Source: a virus. Taken from it: 37,103 bases of DNA. A program made the translations under genes and the position numbers. Each line of letters begins with the position of its first letter. The stretch's first letter is position 1. The stretch lies in UHGV virus genome UHGV-0194471; one strand, 5' to 3'. The notes under the pieces were generated by a model. It saw only the letters and a program-made list of their open reading frames with translations. It had not been told where the DNA came from and did not search any database. Shown piece by piece: positions 4,254 through 27,831 of the stretch.

Positions 4254-6008
4254 TTAACCGCCGACTACGTTCAGTTGCACTCGGGCGGTAAGCTGCTGCG
4301 CGGCGGCGTCCAGTTCTTCTTCCGCCACGCCTTCTGGCCAGCGTTTCACCAGTTCCTGATACAGTGCGACGTTCCATTCCGGCAACCGTGCTTTCAGCGC
4401 CTTCGCCGCCTCGACGTGAGTCAGACGCCGGGCTTCAACGCGTGGAGCGCGTACCGGGGAATCCTGACCACGACGCGGCAGGAACGCGGGCAGTTCGCTG
4501 TCGGTGATGGGTTTATACGGGTCAAGCCTGCCGCCGAACGGCAGCGCCTTCGCTTTACGCGCCGCAGCCGCGTCCGTCTCGTTATCTGTTCCGGTAACAA
4601 TCTGCTCAATCTGTTTAGCCGCAGTCTGCGCGGGTGTATCGGCGTGGCGCTTGTGATTCTGGCCCAGCACCGCCGCGCCTTCGGCAAAGCCGTATTCGTC
4701 CTTGCGGACTTCCTCCACCAGGTGAAAATACTCGTGGCCATCGTCACCGATGAGCACTACCTGCGCGGCATCGCTGCGCCACGGATTGCGGGTGATCATC
4801 AGTTTTTCACCCACCATCACATCTGGCACGGTGGAGACGTCGTATTCCGTACCCTGAAACGACACGCGCAGCTTCGGCGTTATCTTGCGGCTTTCCGGCG
4901 CGGCAACAGCCAGTTCGCGGCAGACCTCCACCGATGGCGCTTTGATAAGCTGCTGCGCGGTGATGGTCATCCAGACGTTACTACGCGACTTGCCGTGGCG
5001 GGTGTGAATCGCGGTGGCGTTGAAGTGCTGCCGCCACAGGCGCGCTTTGGCGTTCAGTTCCTCCAGGCTGTGAACCGGCTGGAACTTCAGCCCCGGTTCA
5101 AAGCGGCGTTCGATAATGTCGCGCGCCTTTTCCACCTGCCCGGTGGCGCGGGCGTTGTGGGCTTTATGCGCCACCACGTCAATGCCCAGCGAACGACAGA
5201 GGTTCTTCGTCATAGCGGCGGTGTTGGCCGAGCCGGGGTCGAGATACAACATATGCGGCACGCCGTGGAGCACATCCGCGCCGCCGCGCTCCTGCATGGC
5301 ATTGATGAGAACGGAACAGAGATTTTCGCCAGACTCCGCCCCCATCACGTATTCAACGTAGATCCAGCCGCTGGTATGGTCGGTCAGTTCATAGCTCCAT
5401 ACCCGGTCACTGGCGATACGTTGCAGGTTCTTCGGCTTGTTTTTGTAGAACGTCGCGCTGTCCATCACCTGTAACCCGCGCTGGCCGTTGCTGAGGTAGT
5501 ACAGCGTGCAGAGCGAGGCGTCGATTTCCCAGACGTGATTGGGGTGCAGACTGGCAAGCTCCGTCACTGGCGCGGGCTGGCTGAGTTGATCCGGGTGCAG
5601 GCCGTAGCCACGCAGCGCCCGGATGATGGTGCTTTCTGACAATGGCACCCACTCGCCGCTTTCCTCATCCAGCCGCCCGGCGTCAATCTCGCCGTTGGCG
5701 CGTAACATCTCCACGGCATCAATGACGGAATACAGGCGCTTGCCGTTCTTACGGGTGGCTTCCGTCAGCGTAGCGGAAATCATCACCGCCTCATCGCGGG
5801 TCAGCGCGGTTTTTCCGGCGTCGGTGCGGCGCTTGCGTTTATCGGTCACGGCAACCTCCTTTATTCTGCGTAACAGCGTGGCGCGGGACAGGCCAAGTTC
5901 CGCGCAGGCGGCAGTGTAGATTGCGCCGCGTGCGCCATGCCCGGCCTGCCGTGCAGCCTGAGCAACAGCAACTAAGCGTTCGGTCATGACGGCGCTCATG
6001 GTCAGCAT
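4254..6008 (-). CDS. Mu-family DDE transposase
   Basis: 584 aa with an integrase-type catalytic core (candidate DDE residues in WEIDAS, YLDPGS, QVEKARDIIERRFE); position upstream of the B-like ATPase. Confidence 0.8.
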   Translation of the reverse strand: MLTMSAVMTERLVAVAQAARQAGHGARGAIYTAACAELGLSRATLLRRIKEVAVTDKRKRRTDAGKTALTRDEAVMISATLTEATRKNGKRLYSVIDAVEMLRANGEIDAGRLDEESGEWVPLSESTIIRALRGYGLHPDQLSQPAPVTELASLHPNHVWEIDASLCTLYYLSNGQRGLQVMDSATFYKNKPKNLQRIASDRVWSYELTDHTSGWIYVEYVMGAESGENLCSVLINAMQERGGADVLHGVPHMLYLDPGSANTAAMTKNLCRSLGIDVVAHKAHNARATGQVEKARDIIERRFEPGLKFQPVHSLEELNAKARLWRQHFNATAIHTRHGKSRSNVWMTITAQQLIKAPSVEVCRELAVAAPESRKITPKLRVSFQGTEYDVSTVPDVMVGEKLMITRNPWRSDAAQVVLIGDDGHEYFHLVEEVRKDEYGFAEGAAVLGQNHKRHADTPAQTAAKQIEQIVTGTDNETDAAAARKAKALPFGGRLDPYKPITDSELPAFLPRRGQDSPVRAPRVEARRLTHVEAAKALKARLPEWNVALYQELVKRWPEGVAEEELDAAAQQLTARVQLNVVGG

Positions 6009-7790: not shown

Positions 7791-8027
7791 TTAGTTAGGT
7801 TCGTGCAGGATGCCCGGCACGATCTCTTTGCCGATGGTGCGGGACAGCTCTTTCAGAATGCGAAACGTCAGCCGTCCACGCGGCAAATCCTGTTTACCCG
7901 CCCAGCGATCAACAGCTTGCGTAACCGTCCGGGGTTCGTAGCCGGTACTGATGGCGAACTGGCGAAAGTTGCTGCCCTGCTCAATCAGTCGCGCGTGGAT
8001 TTGGTGTTTGTTCATTAGTTTGTTCAT
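7791..8027 (-). CDS. Ner-like DNA-binding protein (early-operon regulator)
   Basis: 78 aa, resembles Mu Ner/Nlp family (…FAISTGYEPRTVTQAVDRW…); first gene of the leftward operon, divergent from the repressor; GAGGGAA precedes the ATG. Confidence 0.65.
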   Translation of the reverse strand: MNKLMNKHQIHARLIEQGSNFRQFAISTGYEPRTVTQAVDRWAGKQDLPRGRLTFRILKELSRTIGKEIVPGILHEPN

Positions 8028-8108
8028 TTGTTCCCTCTGAGCTATTATGTACTCAATTGGGTTTATTGTACGTACTCAAACGGGCAAGTCAACGACTAAT
8101 ATGCACAA
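8028..8108. promoter_or_regulatory. Divergent early/repressor promoter-operator region
   Basis: 81-bp AT-rich spacer between divergent ner-like and repressor genes with direct repeats GTACTCAA (twice) and TTGTAC. Confidence 0.5.
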
Positions 8109-8519
8109 ATGAACATAAAAGAAAGACTCAAAAAAATACTCGCTGACAAAGCGTTATCAATCACTGATGCTGCCGCACAGTGCGATATCCCATATCGTTC
8201 TCTACAAAACTATCTGCGTGGCGAGCGAGAACCAAATGCGGAGGCATTGATCTCAATAGGTACCCATTTGGGTATAAATATTGATTGGCTGCTCACCGGC
8301 AGAGGAGGAATGTATCTGTCTGAACATGCGGATGTTTTGACTGAGCAGCCGGAATACAGCCATGCCGATTTGAAGTTACTGGAATTTTTGAATCAGTTGG
8401 AACCGGATGTACGAAAGGATTTGTTACGCAGTGCTGAAGAAAAACAGCGAGTGGCCGCCCTAGAAAAAAGATTAGAGGAATTGGCTTTAGAACTCGAAAG
8501 CCTAAAACGTTCGGCGTAA
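8109..8519 (+). CDS. Putative prophage repressor, HTH XRE/cI-like
   Basis: N-terminal HTH (…LSITDAAAQCDIPYRSLQNYLRGEREPNAEALISIGTHLGINIDWLLTG) plus C-terminal coiled coil; divergent from the early operon. Confidence 0.65.
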   Translation: MNIKERLKKILADKALSITDAAAQCDIPYRSLQNYLRGEREPNAEALISIGTHLGINIDWLLTGRGGMYLSEHADVLTEQPEYSHADLKLLEFLNQLEPDVRKDLLRSAEEKQRVAALEKRLEELALELESLKRSA

Positions 8520-8557
8520 AGTGTTCTCATTAAGAACAAAACATGAAGGACTATGTT

Positions 8558-9079
8558 ATGAAACACTTTTTCTTACCTTTGGGGGTTTGTGCGCTGTTGT
8601 TGTCGGGATGTGGTGATGACGATGTTACACAGCCATCTGCATCGACAATGTTTACTGTTGAAACCGATAGTCCGGTAGTGAAGCGCGAATTGCCCTTTAT
8701 TCGCCAACAGTGTCCAGGACTGGATAAATACGCAGCAAACTTTGATAAATTTAAGGTCTACGACGACACGATGCGTCCGGTGACAACGGTGGAGTTTCAC
8801 GTCAAGAATGAGAACAGCATACCCGGTAATTACACCGCCTCTGATCATACCTGTTTCCTTTTCATCTCCAACAATACCCACGAAGTGAAGATTTCAAAAT
8901 CCGCCTGCCAGTCTGTTTGCTTCGATAAAGCGGATGTGCCTGGTGGGGATCTGGTTGTGAAACTGGATAAAGAAAGAGTTCCTATGACTGCTGATAAGAA
9001 GTCGCCGCGCGAGGGGTGCCTGATGGTTTACTCGCCAGAGCCAAACGGGGATTACTGGACGTGTCCAAGACAAGATTAA
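8558..9079 (+). CDS. Lipoprotein of unknown function
   Basis: Signal peptide with lipobox MKHFFLPLGVCALLLSGC; AAGGA precedes the ATG at 8558 (alternative start 8543); several Cys in the mature part; AT-rich. Confidence 0.6.
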   Translation: MKHFFLPLGVCALLLSGCGDDDVTQPSASTMFTVETDSPVVKRELPFIRQQCPGLDKYAANFDKFKVYDDTMRPVTTVEFHVKNENSIPGNYTASDHTCFLFISNNTHEVKISKSACQSVCFDKADVPGGDLVVKLDKERVPMTADKKSPREGCLMVYSPEPNGDYWTCPRQD

Positions 9080-9156
9080 ACATGTTGTAAACAAAACAAA
9101 AAAGCGTGCAGACAGCACGCATTTACTATCTAACTCTACTGAAGGTTTCAGATTCT

Positions 9157-10188
9157 ATGCCAGCAAATGAACCTGCAAATGCAATCGTTGTAAATCATGT
9201 GGTTATTCACCTTTTAGATAAAGAGCCGCATGGGGTGACATCCTTACAGCTTAGCCCAGCAGAGAGTGGCGTCACCGCAGCATCACAACGCTTAATAGAT
9301 GATATCTGTGGGAAATATGCAGGGCGAATGGGGAAAGGTTATGGCCATTTTGAAGATGACCCTGACAATTACCCGATGCAAACAATCGTATCAGACTATT
9401 TAGCTCAAGAGCATCCTGATGATTTTTACCGTAGCTCCTGCCGCATGATTCGTCATCTGGAATCTCGGATTCAAACAACACCACTCGCTACTGGTGGCTA
9501 TGTTCTATTCGCCCACATTACGATGAATCAACACGAGCATATTTTAGTTGCCATGTTAAGCCCCACGACGGGAACTGCGGTTAACGATGCCTTTGCTATC
9601 CAGGAAAGTGTCTACCTTGATATCGACAAGCTACGTGTGGCGGGGCGTATTGACATTACGTCCTGGCAATCAGGTGCCGAACGTTATATAAGTTTCCTGA
9701 AAGGGAGCAATGCTGTATCTGGTTACTTTAAGCAGTTCCTGGGCTGTAACGATGTTTTGATCGCCAAGCGTGAAACAGAGAAATTGCGGGATGCGTTGAA
9801 AGAGTTTGCGACTGAGCAAGGGCTTGACCCCGCACGTCGAGAGGCTTTTCTGCAAACGGCCCATGACCATTTGAAGCAACTGAGCAAAGATGGTGAGCCT
9901 GTAGATCTGACAACCTTTGTGAACGCAGTCTGGCCACAAGAACCAGAACTGCTATCGACTAAGCTGGCCAACCAAGAACTGGAACTGTCGGATGGTTTTG
10001 TCCCAGATGGACGCGTACTAAAAGGAATCATTTCCTTTAAAGGAAAGTCCAATCATTGGGAGCTAAAGTTTGATCGTGCTGGTCTTCAAGATGGTTCAAT
10101 TGAGTATAATCGTGATCAGGATGTAATCATTCTAAGGAATATTCCTGATAGCTTCAGAGAAGAGATACTGGATGAGGTTGAGGAGTGA
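9157..10188 (+). CDS. YejK/NdpA-like (NA37 family) nucleoid-associated protein homolog
   Basis: ~343 aa; central segments (GGYVLFAH…ILVAMLS…YLDIDKLRVAGRIDITSWQ…ERYISFLKG…FLGC) resemble the E. coli YejK family as recalled from memory; start placed at ATG 9157 (GAAGG upstream) rather than the track start 9106. Confidence 0.5.
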   Translation: MPANEPANAIVVNHVVIHLLDKEPHGVTSLQLSPAESGVTAASQRLIDDICGKYAGRMGKGYGHFEDDPDNYPMQTIVSDYLAQEHPDDFYRSSCRMIRHLESRIQTTPLATGGYVLFAHITMNQHEHILVAMLSPTTGTAVNDAFAIQESVYLDIDKLRVAGRIDITSWQSGAERYISFLKGSNAVSGYFKQFLGCNDVLIAKRETEKLRDALKEFATEQGLDPARREAFLQTAHDHLKQLSKDGEPVDLTTFVNAVWPQEPELLSTKLANQELELSDGFVPDGRVLKGIISFKGKSNHWELKFDRAGLQDGSIEYNRDQDVIILRNIPDSFREEILDEVEE

Positions 10189-11393
10189 GTATCAGTTTTG
10201 AGCAACTGGTGGGATTGTACAGGCAGATTACTTTCGGTAACGATATGGCCGAAGGTACGCTGGTGCTTACCCCAGAATCCTGCGAGTTGCTCAACGCTTT
10301 GCTTGAGGACACCGATACATATGGGATCTCTCTGGCACAAGGTGAAGTAGTGGCTGGCCAGCAGGTGTCGCTTTTTGTGAACGCCCCAAAGACAAAGCTA
10401 GGTCTGCTATGCCGTAATTTGGCGGCTTTGTTAAAGTCGCCAAAACACCAAAGCGAGGAACCTTCCCGCTACTACCTGATCGACAGCCAATTTTATAGTT
10501 CGGATGCGCCAACATCTGTAATTGAAAACTACCGCACTATCTTAACATTTCTGCGCCTGCTTAAAGAAAAGTCGGCATACTTTGATACCAGTGCATATGA
10601 ATGCGTTTTTTTCCGCGCCGATGTATTTAAATTACCTATACGTTACAGTGCAGAAACCGTAGAAAATCTTGATAAAACGACACTCGATGAACTCATTCAG
10701 CAGTTTTCTGACGACACACACAAAGAGCAGAAACTCTCGCTTTTAATTGAAAGCATCCAGTTAATCGGTCAGGAAACGGAAAACAATAAAGTCTTTGAGT
10801 ATGCACTGAAGAACATTGATAAATTAAAAGTTGAGTTCGATAAGGGTTATCGCCTCTTCACTTCTGGGTTCTCATACGAAAAGGTTCTGGATGAACTTAG
10901 AACCGCCAAAGTTGAAGAAATGGGACGTATCCATAAAGTCTTTTCAGATATCCAAAACCAGATACTGGGTATCCCAGTCGCAACCATTATCGTCGCGACA
11001 CAAATCAAGAAAGCAAGTGGTGATGTCTATCAAACCATTATCAATAGCGCAGTTTTTTTAGGGGCCTTTGTTTTTGCTACGTTGGTTATGTTGACTTTGT
11101 TCAACCAGTTACAGACGTTAACTGCTATCAAAGAAGAACTTCGACATAAAAAGACTCAGGTTGATAAAAAGTATGCATCAATAAAAAATGACATTGATAG
11201 TATCTTTTGCTCTGTACGTAAACGTCTTTGCCGTCAGGTTATCGCGTTCTGGTTTATTATTATGTTCCTTGTTGTCGCTATTATATCGACAGGATTAATT
11301 TACCTATACTGCACATACCCTGAAACATGGAATATCTTGGTTACAAAAGTGATGTCATGGCGGCATCACTTGAGTAATAAGCCCACTCCTTAA
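10185..11393 (+). CDS. Membrane-anchored protein of unknown function (large cytoplasmic N-domain, C-terminal TM helices)
   Basis: GTG start overlaps the upstream stop (GTGA); predicted TM segments AVFLGAFVFATLVMLTLF and VIAFWFIIMFLVVAIISTGLIYLY; markedly AT-rich. Confidence 0.55.
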   Translation: MSISFEQLVGLYRQITFGNDMAEGTLVLTPESCELLNALLEDTDTYGISLAQGEVVAGQQVSLFVNAPKTKLGLLCRNLAALLKSPKHQSEEPSRYYLIDSQFYSSDAPTSVIENYRTILTFLRLLKEKSAYFDTSAYECVFFRADVFKLPIRYSAETVENLDKTTLDELIQQFSDDTHKEQKLSLLIESIQLIGQETENNKVFEYALKNIDKLKVEFDKGYRLFTSGFSYEKVLDELRTAKVEEMGRIHKVFSDIQNQILGIPVATIIVATQIKKASGDVYQTIINSAVFLGAFVFATLVMLTLFNQLQTLTAIKEELRHKKTQVDKKYASIKNDIDSIFCSVRKRLCRQVIAFWFIIMFLVVAIISTGLIYLYCTYPETWNILVTKVMSWRHHLSNKPTP

Positions 11394-11432
11394 ACCCCTT
11401 TAAAAGCCTTCCTGCCTACCATTCCGCACACT

Positions 11433-11454
11433 GCCTCCATCACCCAATGGAGGC
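11433..11454 (+). promoter_or_regulatory. Hairpin enclosing the Shine-Dalgarno of the holin-like gene
   Basis: GCCTCCAT-cacccA-ATGGAGGC, 8-bp stem; the GGAGG at 11449..11453 is in the 3' arm, 5 nt before ATG 11459. Confidence 0.4.
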
Positions 11455-11458
11455 ACTT

Positions 11459-11749
11459 ATGAAAACTTCTCTTTTCCCGCGTTTATCCGGCTGGCTGGTG
11501 GCATCGGTGGTGTTGTTCGCGCTGATTGCGCTGATTTCCCCGCAGCAGCTTCCGGTCGTTGTTTACAAACTGAGCCTGATCTCGCTGGCGGCGGTGCTGG
11601 GCTACTGGCTGGATCGCAGCCTGTTTCCCTATGCGCGGCCAAATTATTTTCAGTCAGCGGAAAATGAACAACGTCTCTTTGCCGCCGCCATGCTGCGCCG
11701 TGCGGTGATTGTCGCGGCGGTGTGTCTGGCCGTGGCGATGGGGCTGTAG
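11459..11749 (+). CDS. Putative holin / small membrane protein (3 predicted TM helices)
   Basis: 96 aa, hydrophobic segments, immediately upstream of the endolysin; GGAGG RBS. Confidence 0.45.
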   Translation: MKTSLFPRLSGWLVASVVLFALIALISPQQLPVVVYKLSLISLAAVLGYWLDRSLFPYARPNYFQSAENEQRLFAAAMLRRAVIVAAVCLAVAMGL

Positions 11750-11751
11750 CC

Positions 11752-12486
11752 ATGACGCTGCATATGTACTGGCCGCAGGTTGTCTGGTCTGTGACGGCGC
11801 TGCTGGGGATGGGAATGGCGCTGGCGCGTCACGGGCAACCGCGCACCGATAAACACAATTTCTGGTACCAGTCGCTGGCGGTACTGATTGCAGGCTGGCT
11901 GCTCTGGTGCGGCGGTTTTTTTAGCCAGGCCAATGCCGCCGAACCGCCCGCTTCCGCCAAACCTTACCGCGCCGAACTGGTGCGTAATGCCCGCGCGGTA
12001 TGGGGGATGGATGCGCCTGTCGCCGATTTCGCCGGGCAGTTCCAGCAGGAATCCGACTGGAATCCCGCCGCCCGTTCACCCGTTGGTGCGCAGGGGATGG
12101 CGCAGTTTATGCCCTCCACTAGCGACTGGATCAGCCAACTGCTTCCCGAACTCCGCGCCCGAGAGCCGTTTAACCCGTCGTGGGCCATCCGGGCGCTGGT
12201 GCAATACGACCAGTGGTTGTGGCAGCGCGTCAGCGCCCGCGATGGTTGCCAGCGAATGGCATTCACCTTAAGCGCCTATAACGGCGGTTTAGGCTGGGTG
12301 AACCGCGATAAAAAGCTGGCGGCGCAGCGCGGGCTGGATGCCGCCGTCTGGTTTGACGCGGTGGCGACGGTCAACGCCGGGCGCAGCGCCGCCAACTGGC
12401 GCGAGAACCGGGGTTATCCGCAACGCATCCTGTACCAGAACGCGCCGCGCTATCTGTCATGGGGAGGGGCTAACTGTGTTCGATAA
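11752..12486 (+). CDS. Endolysin, lytic transglycosylase (SLT domain) with N-terminal membrane/SAR-like segment
   Basis: SLT signature ESDWNPAARSPVGAQGMAQFMPST; N-terminal hydrophobic helices; start taken at ATG 11752 (track start 11722 overlaps the holin gene). Confidence 0.7.
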   Translation: MTLHMYWPQVVWSVTALLGMGMALARHGQPRTDKHNFWYQSLAVLIAGWLLWCGGFFSQANAAEPPASAKPYRAELVRNARAVWGMDAPVADFAGQFQQESDWNPAARSPVGAQGMAQFMPSTSDWISQLLPELRAREPFNPSWAIRALVQYDQWLWQRVSARDGCQRMAFTLSAYNGGLGWVNRDKKLAAQRGLDAAVWFDAVATVNAGRSAANWRENRGYPQRILYQNAPRYLSWGGANCVR

Positions 12487-13069
12487 ACTCAAAACGGCGG
12501 GGTTAGCCGCCACGCTGATACTGCTATTCGTCGTGTTTGGCGGGTATTTCGCGTGGCTGCAAGGCCACAAACACGGCTACGAGAAGGCGCAGACTGAATG
12601 CCTGCGCCTGCAAAAACAGCAGGCCAAGGCCGGGCAACGGGCGTTGCAGGAGGAAATAAACCGCAGCCAGCAGCAGTTGATTCACATCCGGGAAAACGAG
12701 CAGACCTACCTCGCCCGGACAGAGGAACTGACCGCCCGCAACGCCGAACTACAGAGGAAAATTAACGATGTTACGCAGCATTACGTTGACGAAAAAGGCA
12801 AGGCTCATACTGTGGCCTGCGTGTTTACTCGCGGCTTCGTGCAGCAGTACAACGCCTCCCTCGGCGTGTCCGCCCCGGATGTTGCCGCCGCTACCCGCGA
12901 CGCTGGCGCGGCCGCCGCAGCCGTTCAGGGCGCTGACGCCCGGTTACGCGCCTCCGGCGTCAGCCAGCGCGACATCCTCGCCAATCTCGCCGACAACGGC
13001 CAGCGCTGCCAGCAGTTAGCGCTCCAGGTGCGTGGCTTGCAGAACTATATCGCGGAGGTGTCGCGATGA
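12476..13069 (+). CDS. Rz-like i-spanin
   Basis: GTG start preceded by GGGGAGGGG; N-terminal TM (LAATLILLFVVFGGYFAWL) then coiled-coil periplasmic domain; the track start 12338 is an upstream extension overlapping the endolysin. Confidence 0.6.
   Translation: MFDKLKTAGLAATLILLFVVFGGYFAWLQGHKHGYEKAQTECLRLQKQQAKAGQRALQEEINRSQQQLIHIRENEQTYLARTEELTARNAELQRKINDVTQHYVDEKGKAHTVACVFTRGFVQQYNASLGVSAPDVAAATRDAGAAAAAVQGADARLRASGVSQRDILANLADNGQRCQQLALQVRGLQNYIAEVSR
12768..13019 (+). CDS. Rz1-like o-spanin embedded in the +1 frame of Rz
   Basis: Lipoprotein signal with lipobox LLAASC followed by a proline-rich mature peptide; GAGGAAA RBS; fully nested in the i-spanin gene. Confidence 0.55.
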   Translation: MLRSITLTKKARLILWPACLLAASCSSTTPPSACPPRMLPPLPATLARPPQPFRALTPGYAPPASASATSSPISPTTASAASS

Positions 13070-25056: not shown

Positions 25057-27831
25057 GTGGCTGCTGAATTTTCAATCGGTGTTCTTATTAGTGGCGCAGT
25101 CACTGGCGCATTTCGTTCTGCTATTGGAGGAACCCAGCGAGCGTTAAACGATCTCCAATCCACCACGCAGCGATTGCAAAACCGTCAGGCCGCGCTGACG
25201 CAGGCGATGACACGTTACGGGCAGGCAGGTATTAGCAGTACATCCCGGCTCAACAACGAATTACAGCAAGTCAGTCGCACAATGGCGCGGCTGGAAAGCC
25301 AGCAAAATAAATTATCCAGCGCAACGGCGCGTAGCCAGGCGATGCGTTCGCAGCGGATGGATCTTTACGCCCAGGGTGCAGAGACCTACGCGCTGGCCAG
25401 AACGATGTCGGCCCCTCTGGTGTCGTCAGTGAAAACCTATGCGGGGTTTGAATCAGGGCTGCGGGATATTGCCGTGACCGGGGATCTGGACAGTAAACAG
25501 GAAGCGGCGATCGATAACGCCATCCGTCAGGCAGCGGGTAAAGTCAACCAGTTGCAGGAAACGCTACTCGGTGGCGTGAATCAACTGGTAGCCGATGGTA
25601 TGAACCCGGAGAAAGCGGCGGGAATGGTGGATTTGCTTGGTAAAACCGCCACGGCCACCAAGGCTGATATGACCGATCTGGCAAAAATGACTTTCGCTTT
25701 TAGCGATGCCTTGAAGATTAGCGATGGAAAGGAGATGCAGGAAGCCTTTGCAATGGCAGCGGTCGGAGCAAAGACCGGCTCCTTTGAACTGAAAGATATG
25801 GCAAAGGCATTGCCTACCCTGACAAAAAGCTTTGCGGCTAAAGGTATTACGGGTAAGGAAGCGATTAAAGAAATTGTCGCCTCTCTCGAAGCTGCAAAAG
25901 GCTCTGGTTCGGCAGAAGAAGCCGTGACCAATATGACCAACTGGATGGGCGCAATGACGCGCGGCGATACCGTCAAGAAATATGAAAAGGCGGGCGTAAA
26001 TTATGAAGCGTCGATGAAAGATTATGTCGCCAAAGGTTATTCGCAATATGAAGCCTCGCTGATGATTGCTGACCGCTTTATTAAAGGTAAAGGCGATGCC
26101 TTTATAAAACAGTGGCAGGAAGCGGGGGCACGTGGCGACGGTGAGTCGCAACAGAAGTTGATGGAGTCGTTTGGTCTGTCGGAGGTTTTTACCGATATTC
26201 AAACCGTCAATCATCTGCTTTCCATGCGTCAGAACTGGGATCAATATCAGTCGAATAAAGCCAAAATGGGTGACCCGGCATCACAGAATGTGCTGGATAC
26301 TGATTTTAATAAGCAAAACGATACCCTGGAAGCCCGCTGGCGAAGCTCGCAGGTAGCGATGAATGAGATGGCAATCAGTATCGGTAGTTCTCTACGCCCG
26401 GCACTGGTCGAATTATCGGAAAGTCTGCTGCCAGTAATGAGTTCTTTTGCAAAATGGCTTTCAGCTAACCCGGAGATGGTGGCGAATATAGCCAAACTAC
26501 TGGCCGGATTTATTGCATTCAAAGCGGCGACGGTCGGTAGCAAGCTGGCTCTGAATATGATGTTGTCGCCGTTTGTGGATTGTATTAAAGCGGTAACGTT
26601 GCTTAACACGAAATGGCTGCTTCTGAAAACAGCCTTTTCGTCTGGCGGCAAACTGGCAGGCATCACTAAGTTGTTCGGCTCGCTAGCGCGTGGTGCCTTG
26701 TCATTAGGCAAAATCCTTGCCGGTGGATTAATGCGTGGCGTGATGATGGCCGCCCGTGCCGTAATGTTTCTGGGCCGTGCGCTGCTGATGAATCCCATCG
26801 GGTTGATTATCACTGGCATCGCGGCAGCCGCGTATCTGATTTATCGCTACTGGGGGCCCATTTCCGGCTTCTTTAAACGGCTGTGGGCGCAGGTCACGGT
26901 AGCGTTTCGCGGGGCGTGGAGCGGCATCAAAGGTATCTGGAGTGGCGTGTCGGGCTGGTTCTCTGGTATCTGGGCGCAAATCAAAACCGCATTCAGCGGT
27001 GGGATTGGCGGCGTGGCAAAGCTGATTACCAACTGGTCGCCGCTGGGCCTGTTCTATAAAGCTTTTGCCGGAGTGATGAAATACTTCGGTATCGATATGC
27101 CGAAGAACTTTACCGATTTTGGCGGTAATCTGATTAACGGTCTGATGAACGGTATCGGCAATGCGCTGACTGCTGCGAAAGAGACGGTCGTTAACTTTGG
27201 TAACTCGATTTCAGGCTGGTTTAAGGAGACGCTGGGCATTCACTCCCCGAGCCAGGTGTTTGCCGGGTTCGGCGACAATATCGCGCAAGGGGCCGCTATC
27301 GGTATCAACCGCACCGCCCCGGATGCGATTTCCGCCAGCCAACAGATGGCGGCGGCGTTAATTCCCCCGTTGCTGGATATCCGCGTTCCGGGTCTGGATG
27401 TTGCCGCAATACCACAGCGACCACCTGTTGCGGGTGGCATCGCGCCTCAACTCAACCCACTGCTGCCGAAAGTCGCACCGCCCACCATTGTGCCAGCCCC
27501 CACTGCGGCGGGTATGGCGCTGGCTGGGGCGGCGGGCGCGGTGTTATCTCGCCGCAAACCGCTGCCGCCAGTGCCACCAAAACCCGCCGTACCTGCCGTT
27601 CCTGAACTGCCGAAAAGTACCGCACCAGCCGCCAAAGGCCGCAATGCCAGTGCGCGTGTGCCGGGGCAGTCATCCGGGGTGAATGTGACCTTTGCGCCGC
27701 AAATTACCATCAAAGGCGCGGCATCGACGACCGAGGGCGAAATCACCTCTGCGCTGAAACTGAGCCTGCACGAACTTGAAAAGATGATGGAGCGGATTAT
27801 GGCGCGTCGTGAACGCCGGGAGTATGCATAA
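25057..27831 (+). CDS. Tail tape measure protein
   Basis: 924 aa, GTG start after GGGAG; long helical protein with internal hydrophobic segments and a Pro-rich C-terminal region; sits after the chaperone. Confidence 0.75.
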   Translation: MAAEFSIGVLISGAVTGAFRSAIGGTQRALNDLQSTTQRLQNRQAALTQAMTRYGQAGISSTSRLNNELQQVSRTMARLESQQNKLSSATARSQAMRSQRMDLYAQGAETYALARTMSAPLVSSVKTYAGFESGLRDIAVTGDLDSKQEAAIDNAIRQAAGKVNQLQETLLGGVNQLVADGMNPEKAAGMVDLLGKTATATKADMTDLAKMTFAFSDALKISDGKEMQEAFAMAAVGAKTGSFELKDMAKALPTLTKSFAAKGITGKEAIKEIVASLEAAKGSGSAEEAVTNMTNWMGAMTRGDTVKKYEKAGVNYEASMKDYVAKGYSQYEASLMIADRFIKGKGDAFIKQWQEAGARGDGESQQKLMESFGLSEVFTDIQTVNHLLSMRQNWDQYQSNKAKMGDPASQNVLDTDFNKQNDTLEARWRSSQVAMNEMAISIGSSLRPALVELSESLLPVMSSFAKWLSANPEMVANIAKLLAGFIAFKAATVGSKLALNMMLSPFVDCIKAVTLLNTKWLLLKTAFSSGGKLAGITKLFGSLARGALSLGKILAGGLMRGVMMAARAVMFLGRALLMNPIGLIITGIAAAAYLIYRYWGPISGFFKRLWAQVTVAFRGAWSGIKGIWSGVSGWFSGIWAQIKTAFSGGIGGVAKLITNWSPLGLFYKAFAGVMKYFGIDMPKNFTDFGGNLINGLMNGIGNALTAAKETVVNFGNSISGWFKETLGIHSPSQVFAGFGDNIAQGAAIGINRTAPDAISASQQMAAALIPPLLDIRVPGLDVAAIPQRPPVAGGIAPQLNPLLPKVAPPTIVPAPTAAGMALAGAAGAVLSRRKPLPPVPPKPAVPAVPELPKSTAPAAKGRNASARVPGQSSGVNVTFAPQITIKGAASTTEGEITSALKLSLHELEKMMERIMARRERREYA

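Follow-up and report, generated by a model that had tools for sequence, protein, structure and literature searches.

Llp of phage T5 and Cor of phages phi80, N15 and HK022 are outer-membrane lipoproteins that inactivate FhuA, and their genes adjoin receptor-binding or tail genes, not the repressor gene. Bor of phage Lambda is an outer-membrane lipoprotein and serum-resistance factor encoded near the lysis genes. The lactococcal exclusion gene sie2009 lies next to the repressor gene and is expressed from the prophage. Ltp (PF07553) of Streptococcus thermophilus phage TP-J34 is a lipoprotein made from the prophage, and its gene is an exclusion gene in the lysogeny module next to the repressor gene; the protein, exposed on the outer side of the cytoplasmic membrane, is the prototype of prophage lipoproteins that block DNA injection, and it does not act on adsorption (PMC3952083). 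In P22, sieA is also a prophage-expressed exclusion gene next to the repressor gene (PMC10883804). Llp of T5 is disulfide-stabilised and is found in the inner leaflet of the outer membrane (PMC9586334). An exclusion gene placed beside the repressor gene is the genomic logic common to Ltp, sie2009 and SieA, and the lipoprotein gene described here occupies such a position.

The window, meaning the whole 37,103 nt stretch of DNA that was analysed, is an almost complete BcepMu-like (Mu-type) transposable prophage. Its DDE transposase shares 68% identity with that of BcepMu and 76% with those of Klebsiella phage KP12, Escherichia PhiKM and Phi06_2974 B. The leftward early operon is made up of genes for a Ner-like protein, a 79-aa ORF, a MarR/IclR-type regulator, a DUF3102 protein and the DDE transposase, and the Ner-like and repressor genes diverge across an 81-nt intergenic region. 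Rightward, beyond the lipoprotein gene, are the holin, SLT endolysin and spanin genes and ORFs matching the terminase, portal and tail genes of relatives. The features of the window referred to below are as follows.

4254..6008, minus strand: DDE transposase gene, in the leftward early operon
7791..8027, minus strand: Ner/Cro-like gene, first of the leftward early operon and divergent from the repressor gene (phrog_8503, 1.4e-38; weak matches to HTH repressor PHROGs)
8046-8061 and 8069-8084, no strand assigned: two direct repeats TAYGTACTCAANNGGG, candidate operators in the c/ner intergenic region
8092..8065, minus strand: early promoter-like site for the leftward early operon, 10/12 match to sigma-70, in the c/ner intergenic region
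8109..8519, plus strand: repressor (c-like) gene, 136 aa (HTH_3, 4.7e-8; Phage_CI_repr, 1.5e-4; PHROG 'transcriptional repressor' families)
8523..8537, plus strand: inverted repeat GTTCTCATTAAGAAC, lying past the repressor stop and ahead of the lipoprotein ribosome-binding site
8545..8550, plus strand: Shine-Dalgarno sequence GAAGGA, 7 nt before the ATG at 8558
8558..9079, plus strand: lipoprotein gene, 173 aa (ATG at 8558, TAA at 9077-9079)
8600..8611, plus strand: lipobox L15-S16-G17-C18, with Cys18 the predicted lipidated N-terminus
9104..9120, plus strand: GC-rich hairpin GCGTGC-AGACA-GCACGC, 25 nt past the lipoprotein stop, with A-run and ATTT flanks
11447..11749, plus strand: holin gene, lysis cassette
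11722..12486, plus strand: SLT endolysin gene, lysis cassette
12338..13069, plus strand: Rz-like i-spanin gene, lysis cassette
12768..13019, plus strand: o-spanin gene, proline-rich lipoprotein with lipobox LAASC, embedded in the i-spanin gene
25057..27831: tape-measure gene

The repressor has an N-terminal HTH and a C-terminal region that is probably helical. The first-pass annotation had described an AT-rich lipoprotein gene immediately downstream of the repressor gene and in the same direction, and this description stands on each point. The gap from the repressor stop to the lipoprotein start is 38 nt and both genes are on the plus strand, while the G+C content of the lipoprotein gene is 47.6%, compared with about 58% for the phage, and the gene falls in a block (8001-11500) of 40-49% G+C flanked by phage DNA of roughly 55-64%. 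A longer form of the ORF begins at 8543 with no Shine-Dalgarno sequence ahead of it; the AAGGA motif that precedes the ATG at 8558 is found in identical placement in all relatives.

In the N-terminus of the protein (MKHFFLPLGVCALLLSGC), a basic n-region and a hydrophobic core precede the lipobox that had been noticed on first reading. Residues 15-18 (LSGC) conform to the pattern [LVI][ASTVI][GAS]C of signal peptidase II substrates, Cys18 is invariant in 24/24 homologues, and the residue before it is Gly in at least 90%. Cys18 is followed by Gly at +2 and Asp at +3, a pair ('GD') found in 21/24 homologues. Under the +2 rule, Gly at this position (with Asp at +3) predicts an outer-membrane location. 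Counted from Cys18, the mature protein has 156 aa. The signal peptide and a disordered linker, which extends about 10 residues beyond Cys18, take up residues 1-28, and an AlphaFold2 model built with the 24 homologues has a confidently predicted alpha+beta core at residues 39-169 (mean pLDDT 80.5).

Searches of Pfam, NCBIfam and PADLOC with the lipoprotein gave no match. In PHROGs it matched phrog_10002 and, weakly, phrog_8801, both families with no assigned function. The predicted fold had no structural match in the PDB or BFVD, and a profile built from 130 family members found none among PDB sequences. Nothing on this family turned up in the literature searched on BcepMu-type phages, lipoproteins and exclusion. 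The protein thus belongs to an unnamed family that includes phrog_10002 and has no characterised member in Pfam, NCBIfam, PADLOC, the PDB or the literature searched. Since no fold match was found, no relationship can be detected to Llp, to Ltp, to MliC-type inhibitors, to LolB-like proteins or to any other solved lipoprotein.

Like Cor and Llp, the window protein is a phage-encoded lipoprotein facing the periplasm. However, it shares no sequence or structural similarity with them, its gene is in the immunity region, many of its relatives are anchored in the inner membrane, and Cor and Llp are about half the size of the 156-aa mature protein. The Cor- or Llp-like identity put forward by the first-pass annotation is therefore not upheld. 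As with Ltp, the window gene is found beside the repressor gene, and one distant homologue (P0046) bears two Ltp repeats; the window protein itself has neither a PF07553 repeat nor a fold match to Ltp, and it comes from a Gram-negative, Mu-like myophage. With Bor it has in common that it is a lipoprotein expressed from the prophage in the lysogen, if the transcription proposed below is correct, though no homology was found in the Pfam scan.

Among 5.8 billion proteins searched, only 30 relatives came up, at 57-88% identity; every one of them is enterobacterial and annotated as hypothetical. Most of the core is conserved among the homologues. Against relatives with dS of about 0.8, dN/dS for the gene was 0.09-0.12; against the KP12-like clade dN was about 0.21 and synonymous sites were saturated. 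A dN/dS of about 0.1 indicates that the gene is real and under purifying selection, and with homologues at 57-88% identity the possibility of a non-coding artefact was rejected. Variability among related prophages had been suggested as a property to check, and it was found in the flanks of the gene, the gene itself being strongly conserved.

To place the gene in context, 27 close-relative loci (L001-L027) were collected from genomes, phage records and IMG/VR, and the proteins of the window were mapped onto them. They come from Escherichia coli, Salmonella, Klebsiella phage KP12, Pantoea, Serratia, Apirhabdus and IMG/VR contigs. Wherever a locus includes upstream sequence, the lipoprotein gene is directly 3' of the repressor region and on the same strand; in the Serratia lineage it comes after a repressor-linked membrane protein gene rather than the repressor gene. 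The interval between the lipoprotein and holin genes varies from 0.5 to 4 kb and differs in gene content among the relatives. A Dam-type methylase gene on the opposite strand is present in 11 loci, and an IS21-type element, a BcepMu gp19-like protein and other genes are found elsewhere.

A YejK-like gene and a gene for a 402-aa membrane protein, together resembling a DS-1 defence pair, are downstream only in the window and E. coli A35 types. Here the three genes are adjacent and co-oriented and fall within one AT-rich block, an arrangement that could make the lipoprotein a third component of the defence operon. Most relatives, however, have the lipoprotein gene without both of these genes and carry a Dam methylase or other genes instead; among L001-L027 all three were found together only in L008 and L009 (near-identical copies of the window) and in L002 and L010 (A35 type). 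The DNA homology of the window to L023, L001 and L015 ends at 9080, 1 base beyond the lipoprotein stop, and the hairpin at 9104..9120 separates the lipoprotein gene from the pair. Membership of the defence operon is accordingly very improbable.

On the other side, E. coli A35 has a repressor/Ner pair unrelated to that of the window, and DNA homology restarts at 8546, just ahead of the ribosome-binding site. Despite this swap, the A35 lipoprotein is 83% identical to the window protein. Recombination junctions thus bound the gene on both sides, and it behaves as a discrete module that survives exchange of both immunity genes and cargo. Its retention through these swaps indicates that it is tied neither to one repressor specificity nor to the downstream cargo. 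The domain is absent altogether from PhiKM, one enterobacterial Bcepmuvirus.

The first-pass annotation had also allowed for conservation of the gene as a virion or lysis component, and the comparison showed that it is conserved as a component of the immunity region. The gene is upstream of the lysis cassette and on the same strand, which is what could be expected of an o-spanin or other outer-membrane lysis lipoprotein, but the phage already has a holin, an SLT endolysin, an i-spanin and an embedded o-spanin. In addition, 2.3 kb of cargo separates the lipoprotein gene from the cassette, and in relatives this interval is variable and sometimes on the opposite strand. With a complete cassette that includes the o-spanin at 12768..13019, a role in lysis has a negligible chance of being correct and is in practice excluded.

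The sequence between the repressor and lipoprotein genes was examined for signals that would separate their expression. No terminator-like site was seen in the 38-nt gap. The inverted repeat at 8523-8537 has no T-run and is not terminator-like; it is present as a single copy in the window and is kept as GTTCCTATTAAGAAC or GTTCCCATTAAGAAC in relatives at about 68% DNA identity. Because no further copy occurs at the c/ner operators, it is no obvious repressor site. Past the lipoprotein gene, the hairpin at 9104..9120 looks like a bidirectional terminator that would be weak on the plus strand, where the T-tract that follows it is poor (ATTTACTATC tail). Unrelated hairpin sequences are found at the same place 3' of the lipoprotein gene in the KP12-like and related lineages, and in L023 there is no obvious hairpin after the lipoprotein stop. 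The holin and endolysin genes are downstream on the same strand, so the repressor transcript must stop before reaching them in a lysogen. The strongest argument at hand that the lipoprotein is made in the lysogen is the placing of this stop beyond the lipoprotein gene and not directly behind the repressor gene, and from these signals we infer that the two genes are co-transcribed and expressed there.

An exhaustive HMM search of 1.84 billion cluster representatives (E <= 1e-3) recovered 133 clusters at 50% identity. The family core is about 100 residues and contains a PGLDKY motif and conserved cysteines, with P53, G54, Y58, C99 and C117 near-invariant across 130 sequences. A lipobox, signal peptide or membrane anchor is present at the start of nearly all full-length members, so the domain is extracytoplasmic throughout the family. 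In many relatives it is tethered to the inner membrane through a transmembrane helix or a lipobox with Asp at +2, and in four members a cytoplasmic zinc ribbon and a membrane anchor precede it. When proteins were searched again by a word index with the 130-sequence profile, only a few more distant members came to light, and no informative name was among them.

The cysteines occur in pairs. Cys99 and Cys117 are both present in 124/129 sequences, while for Cys52 and Cys121 there are 94 sequences with both, 24 with neither and 11 mixed (Fisher p = 4e-17, kinship ignored). Paired occurrence of this kind points to disulfide bonds and hence to a periplasmic protein, and the window lipoprotein is probably disulfide-bonded and extracytoplasmic.

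A disulfide-stabilised periplasmic lipoprotein, as these pairs suggest, could be a murein-hydrolase inhibitor that shields the wall of the lysogen from the phage's own SLT-type endolysin or from incoming tail lysins. Proteinaceous lysozyme inhibitors such as MliC are lipoproteins, and in all the close-relative phages the gene is upstream of that for the SLT endolysin. Against this, the protein resembles MliC, PliC, Ivy and PliG neither in sequence nor in fold, and further afield the slot in L064 and L065 precedes regions with no listed SLT match, while L051-type phages carry a non-SLT enzyme. The lipoprotein therefore does not co-vary with the type of endolysin, and an inhibitory role of this kind is quite improbable.

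P0046 has a membrane anchor followed by the domain and then two Lipoprotein_Ltp repeats (PF07553, 5.5e-28), and is the only one of the 130 family members with such repeats. It sits on a 4.2-kb contig that is not obviously from a phage, and the fusion is represented by a single cluster. Scans of viral contigs with P0046 and P0052 found no relatives.

The genomic setting of distant members was read for six with enough flanking DNA (P0157, P0167, P0163, P0041, P0038 and P0045); P0052, P0056 and P0071 were left out because their contigs are too short. All six were found in the same slot of a Mu-like phage, although P0163 is only 46% identical to the window protein and the other five only 25–40%. 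P0157 and P0167 (143 aa, 26–28% identity) start 27 nt after the gene for a 137-aa protein that is divergent from the transposase operon. P0163 (319 aa, from Escherichia albertii) comes after a Phage_CI_repr repressor, and P0041 is present in 12 viral contigs. P0038 and P0045 occupy this slot in further Mu-like phages. Across the group, the pairing of this periplasmic domain with a repressor gene is thus both ancient and common.

A lysogenic-conversion factor, helping the host independently of phages through serum or complement resistance, envelope stress tolerance or adhesion, would follow the model of Bor. It would suit a prophage lipoprotein predicted to be in the outer membrane from Gly at +2, AT-rich like many accessory genes and found in animal-associated Enterobacteriaceae. 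However, the protein matches neither Bor nor any other Pfam family, and its domain is tied to Mu-like immunity regions in diverse samples, environmental ones included, where it is often anchored in the inner membrane. The gene is also a fixed feature, unlike the variable cargo of typical morons. Such a factor is improbable here.

Fifteen loci from sister enterobacterial prophages have no separate lipoprotein. Instead, the slot contains a gene for a bitopic protein of 324-328 aa (phrog_10002) that overlaps the end of the repressor gene. In this protein a single transmembrane helix connects a cytoplasmic domain with a periplasmic one that is homologous to the lipoprotein; residues 19-130 of the window protein match the C-terminal third of phrog_10002 (1.3e-12; hhalign probability 99%, E 2.1e-18). 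Both are products of the post-repressor slot, but in phrog_10002, at about 325 aa, a cytoplasmic domain of about 180 aa and the transmembrane helix replace the lipobox, and the C-terminal Cys154-Cys169 tail of the window protein is missing. In Serratia sp. Ag1 the bitopic protein and the lipoprotein are both present, in tandem. In the P0041 and P0038 clades a gene for a tail-anchored cytoplasmic protein is followed by an adjacent lipoprotein gene, and one such cytoplasmic protein carries a Flk_N match in precomputed annotation.

In BcepMu itself the slot is taken by the gene for a membrane protein, gp18, which overlaps the end of the repressor gene (gp17). Like the bitopic relatives, gp18 has a cytoplasmic domain, one transmembrane helix and a small periplasmic domain containing Cys, but its periplasmic domain is unrelated to that of the lipoprotein. 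Homology between gp18 and the bitopic relatives was considered and is unsupported (hhalign probability 0.4%).

In the lineages with a repressor-linked membrane protein, the C-terminal tail of the repressor and the N-terminus of the membrane protein have a common motif, which changes in both together between lineages. Because the membrane protein copies the repressor tail and the two change together, a coupling to the repressor is conceivable. A trans-envelope module of repressor, tail-anchored cytoplasmic protein and periplasmic lipoprotein could connect an envelope event, such as phage attack or cell-wall damage, to the stability or activity of the repressor and so to induction or immunity. 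That the domain is the periplasmic sensor of such a module, with the window lipoprotein a reduced form of it, is an improbable reading.

Also unlikely is that the window lipoprotein is a free-standing periplasmic module of an ancestral repressor-linked membrane system, sensing or binding an envelope factor. The system would then tune lysogeny, induction or the timing of lysis, the domain would not form a barrier to entry, and the window protein may pair with another membrane partner. The homology to the periplasmic part of the bitopic proteins, the adjacent genes for the cytoplasmic part with its anchor and for the lipoprotein in other clades, the Flk_N match and the co-varying motif are all in keeping with this reading. 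In the window, however, no homologue of the cytoplasmic domain was found (best tblastn E 0.39), and the repressor ends in an unrelated sequence (EEKQRVAALEKRLEELALELESLKRSA) without the common motif. A lipoprotein alone would be unable to signal across the inner membrane, and this one has been kept unchanged through a swap of repressor type. Compared with the split and fused arrangements, the window has a reduced form in which only the lipoprotein is left.

Of the functions considered for the lipoprotein, exclusion of superinfecting phages at the entry step has the most support, though we propose it tentatively and on the basis of genomic context. The repressor and lipoprotein genes would be transcribed together from the lysogenic promoter, so that the protein is made in the lysogen, with the transcript probably ending at the hairpin after the lipoprotein gene, ahead of the accessory genes and the lysis cassette. 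After export the protein would receive its lipid at Cys18 and fold in the periplasm, where disulfide bonds would form. It may act in the periplasm by blocking a step after adsorption, namely the passage of the incoming tail tip, ejection proteins or DNA through the periplasm and inner membrane.

This proposal draws on the position of the gene, the fusion to Ltp repeats and the inner-membrane tethering of many relatives. The gene has a fixed place beside the repressor gene in relatives both diverged and heteroimmune, no terminator intervenes between the pair, a hairpin comes after the lipoprotein gene, and the protein is predicted to be extracytoplasmic and probably disulfide-bonded, all of which fit a role in exclusion. 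Since relatives tether the domain to the inner membrane, action in the periplasm or at the inner membrane is favoured, and masking of an outer-membrane receptor appears less likely.

Several observations count against exclusion. One is the strong purifying selection on the gene and its retention across hosts and immunity types, as factors engaged in an arms race often diversify. The cytoplasmic domain that mimics the repressor tail in sister phages hints at a regulatory role, rather than that of a barrier, for the ancestral system. The absence of the domain from PhiKM, the weakness of the plus-strand terminator after the lipoprotein gene and the occurrence of the Ltp fusion on one 4.2-kb, not obviously phage contig also weigh on this side.

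The stand-alone lipoprotein, with its predicted new fold, is probably an ordinary exclusion-type accessory protein, and the arrangement of repressor, membrane protein and lipoprotein is more unusual. The slot just after the lipoprotein gene is a cargo hotspot, containing the DS-1-like defence pair, Dam methylases or an Acb2/Tad1-like gene, and could be mined. The fixed pairing of a repressor with an envelope protein, in split and fused forms and with a common motif, draws attention to a neglected part of the immunity region across the entire BcepMu group. If the lipoprotein excludes phages, it would represent a new, structurally unrelated family of exclusion proteins of Gram-negative Mu-like prophages, with a single-gene phenotype that would be easy to test, and would help to show how transposable phages with contractile tails get across the periplasm.

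In the sister prophages L030–L044, a cytoplasmic domain, a transmembrane helix and a lipoprotein-like periplasmic domain are joined in a single protein. The same parts were found as two adjoining genes in the clades represented by L051–L062 and L064, and in L062 one in-frame stop codon separates the membrane-anchored cytoplasmic portion from the lipoprotein-like periplasmic domain. The C-terminal tail of the repressor shares one short motif with the N-terminus of the membrane protein whose gene follows in BcepMu (gp17 and gp18), in L031 and L037 with the fused form, and in L051, L062 and L064 with the split form. This motif varies from lineage to lineage and agrees inside each phage, as in the following pairs (repressor tail, then membrane protein N-terminus):

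FHGAVGQAVAGNITN / FHGEVGQAAGGDINN
HGDVLGNVIKGNVTIG / NGDVGNVVSGDVTI
GNRAAGRDYHE / QNRVAGRDYYE

The motif was not found in the window's repressor. Where it is present, the resemblance suggests either mimicry or one partner for both proteins.

Comparison of the window with the E. coli A35 type (L002) revealed an immunity-module swap, in which unrelated genes take the place of the Ner-like and repressor genes. The breakpoints lie at approximately 7780 and 8546, and the flanks are 84–94% identical. One feature was located between the repressor stop codon and the lipoprotein ribosome binding site:

8523–8537, inverted repeat GTTCTCATTAAGAAC

This repeat is kept in KP12-type relatives at only about 68% overall DNA identity and is missing in relatives with a different repressor module; it may serve in RNA processing or translation. 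Three copies of a direct repeat, TAYGTACYCA..GGG, are candidate operator sites. Two (8046–8061 and 8069–8084) lie within the c/ner intergenic region, overlapping an early promoter-like site, while the third (8257–8272) is internal to the repressor gene.

Across L001–L049, the interval from the lipoprotein gene to the holin gene is a hotspot for variable cargo, which includes, together with further small genes:

Dam-type methylase, opposite strand, 11 loci
Acb2/Tad1-hairpin protein, L045–L048
IS21-type genes, L005
BcepMu gp19-like protein, L025

In the window, the lipoprotein gene is followed by two overlapping genes:

9157..10188, + strand, YejK/NA37-like nucleoid-associated protein (Pfam, 6.2e-74)
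10185..11393, + strand, 402-aa membrane protein

The GTG listed as the start of the first gene (9106) is probably incorrect; E. coli A35 is annotated in RefSeq with a start that agrees with the ATG at 9157. The pair matched the NCBIfam anti-phage protein models DS1_1 and DS1_2 weakly, at 66 and 74.5 bits, both under the respective cutoffs of 330 and 315 bits. YejK-domain defence of the DS-1 type was validated by the DefensePredictor study (PMC13092281), and the two genes here are probably a divergent defence cargo.

Two features were recorded in the lysis region:

11433–11454, GC-rich 8 bp hairpin, GCCTCCAT-CACCCA-ATGGAGGC, overlapping the holin ORF at its first ATG (11447)
12768..13019, + strand, proline-rich lipoprotein ORF (lipobox LAASC) embedded out of frame in the Rz-like gene 12338..13069

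The second holin ATG (11459) may be the real or an alternative start. The embedded ORF and its host gene are an Rz/Rz1-type spanin pair, arranged like the BcepMu spanin pair gp23/gp24.

Escherichia phage PhiKM (L028), an enterobacterial Bcepmuvirus, has the backbone seen in the window, with a transposase 74–76% identical. The lipoprotein-like domain was not found in PhiKM, and the only repressor-like ORF there is short and unannotated. The same backbone occurs without this domain, so the lipoprotein is dispensable for the phage life cycle.
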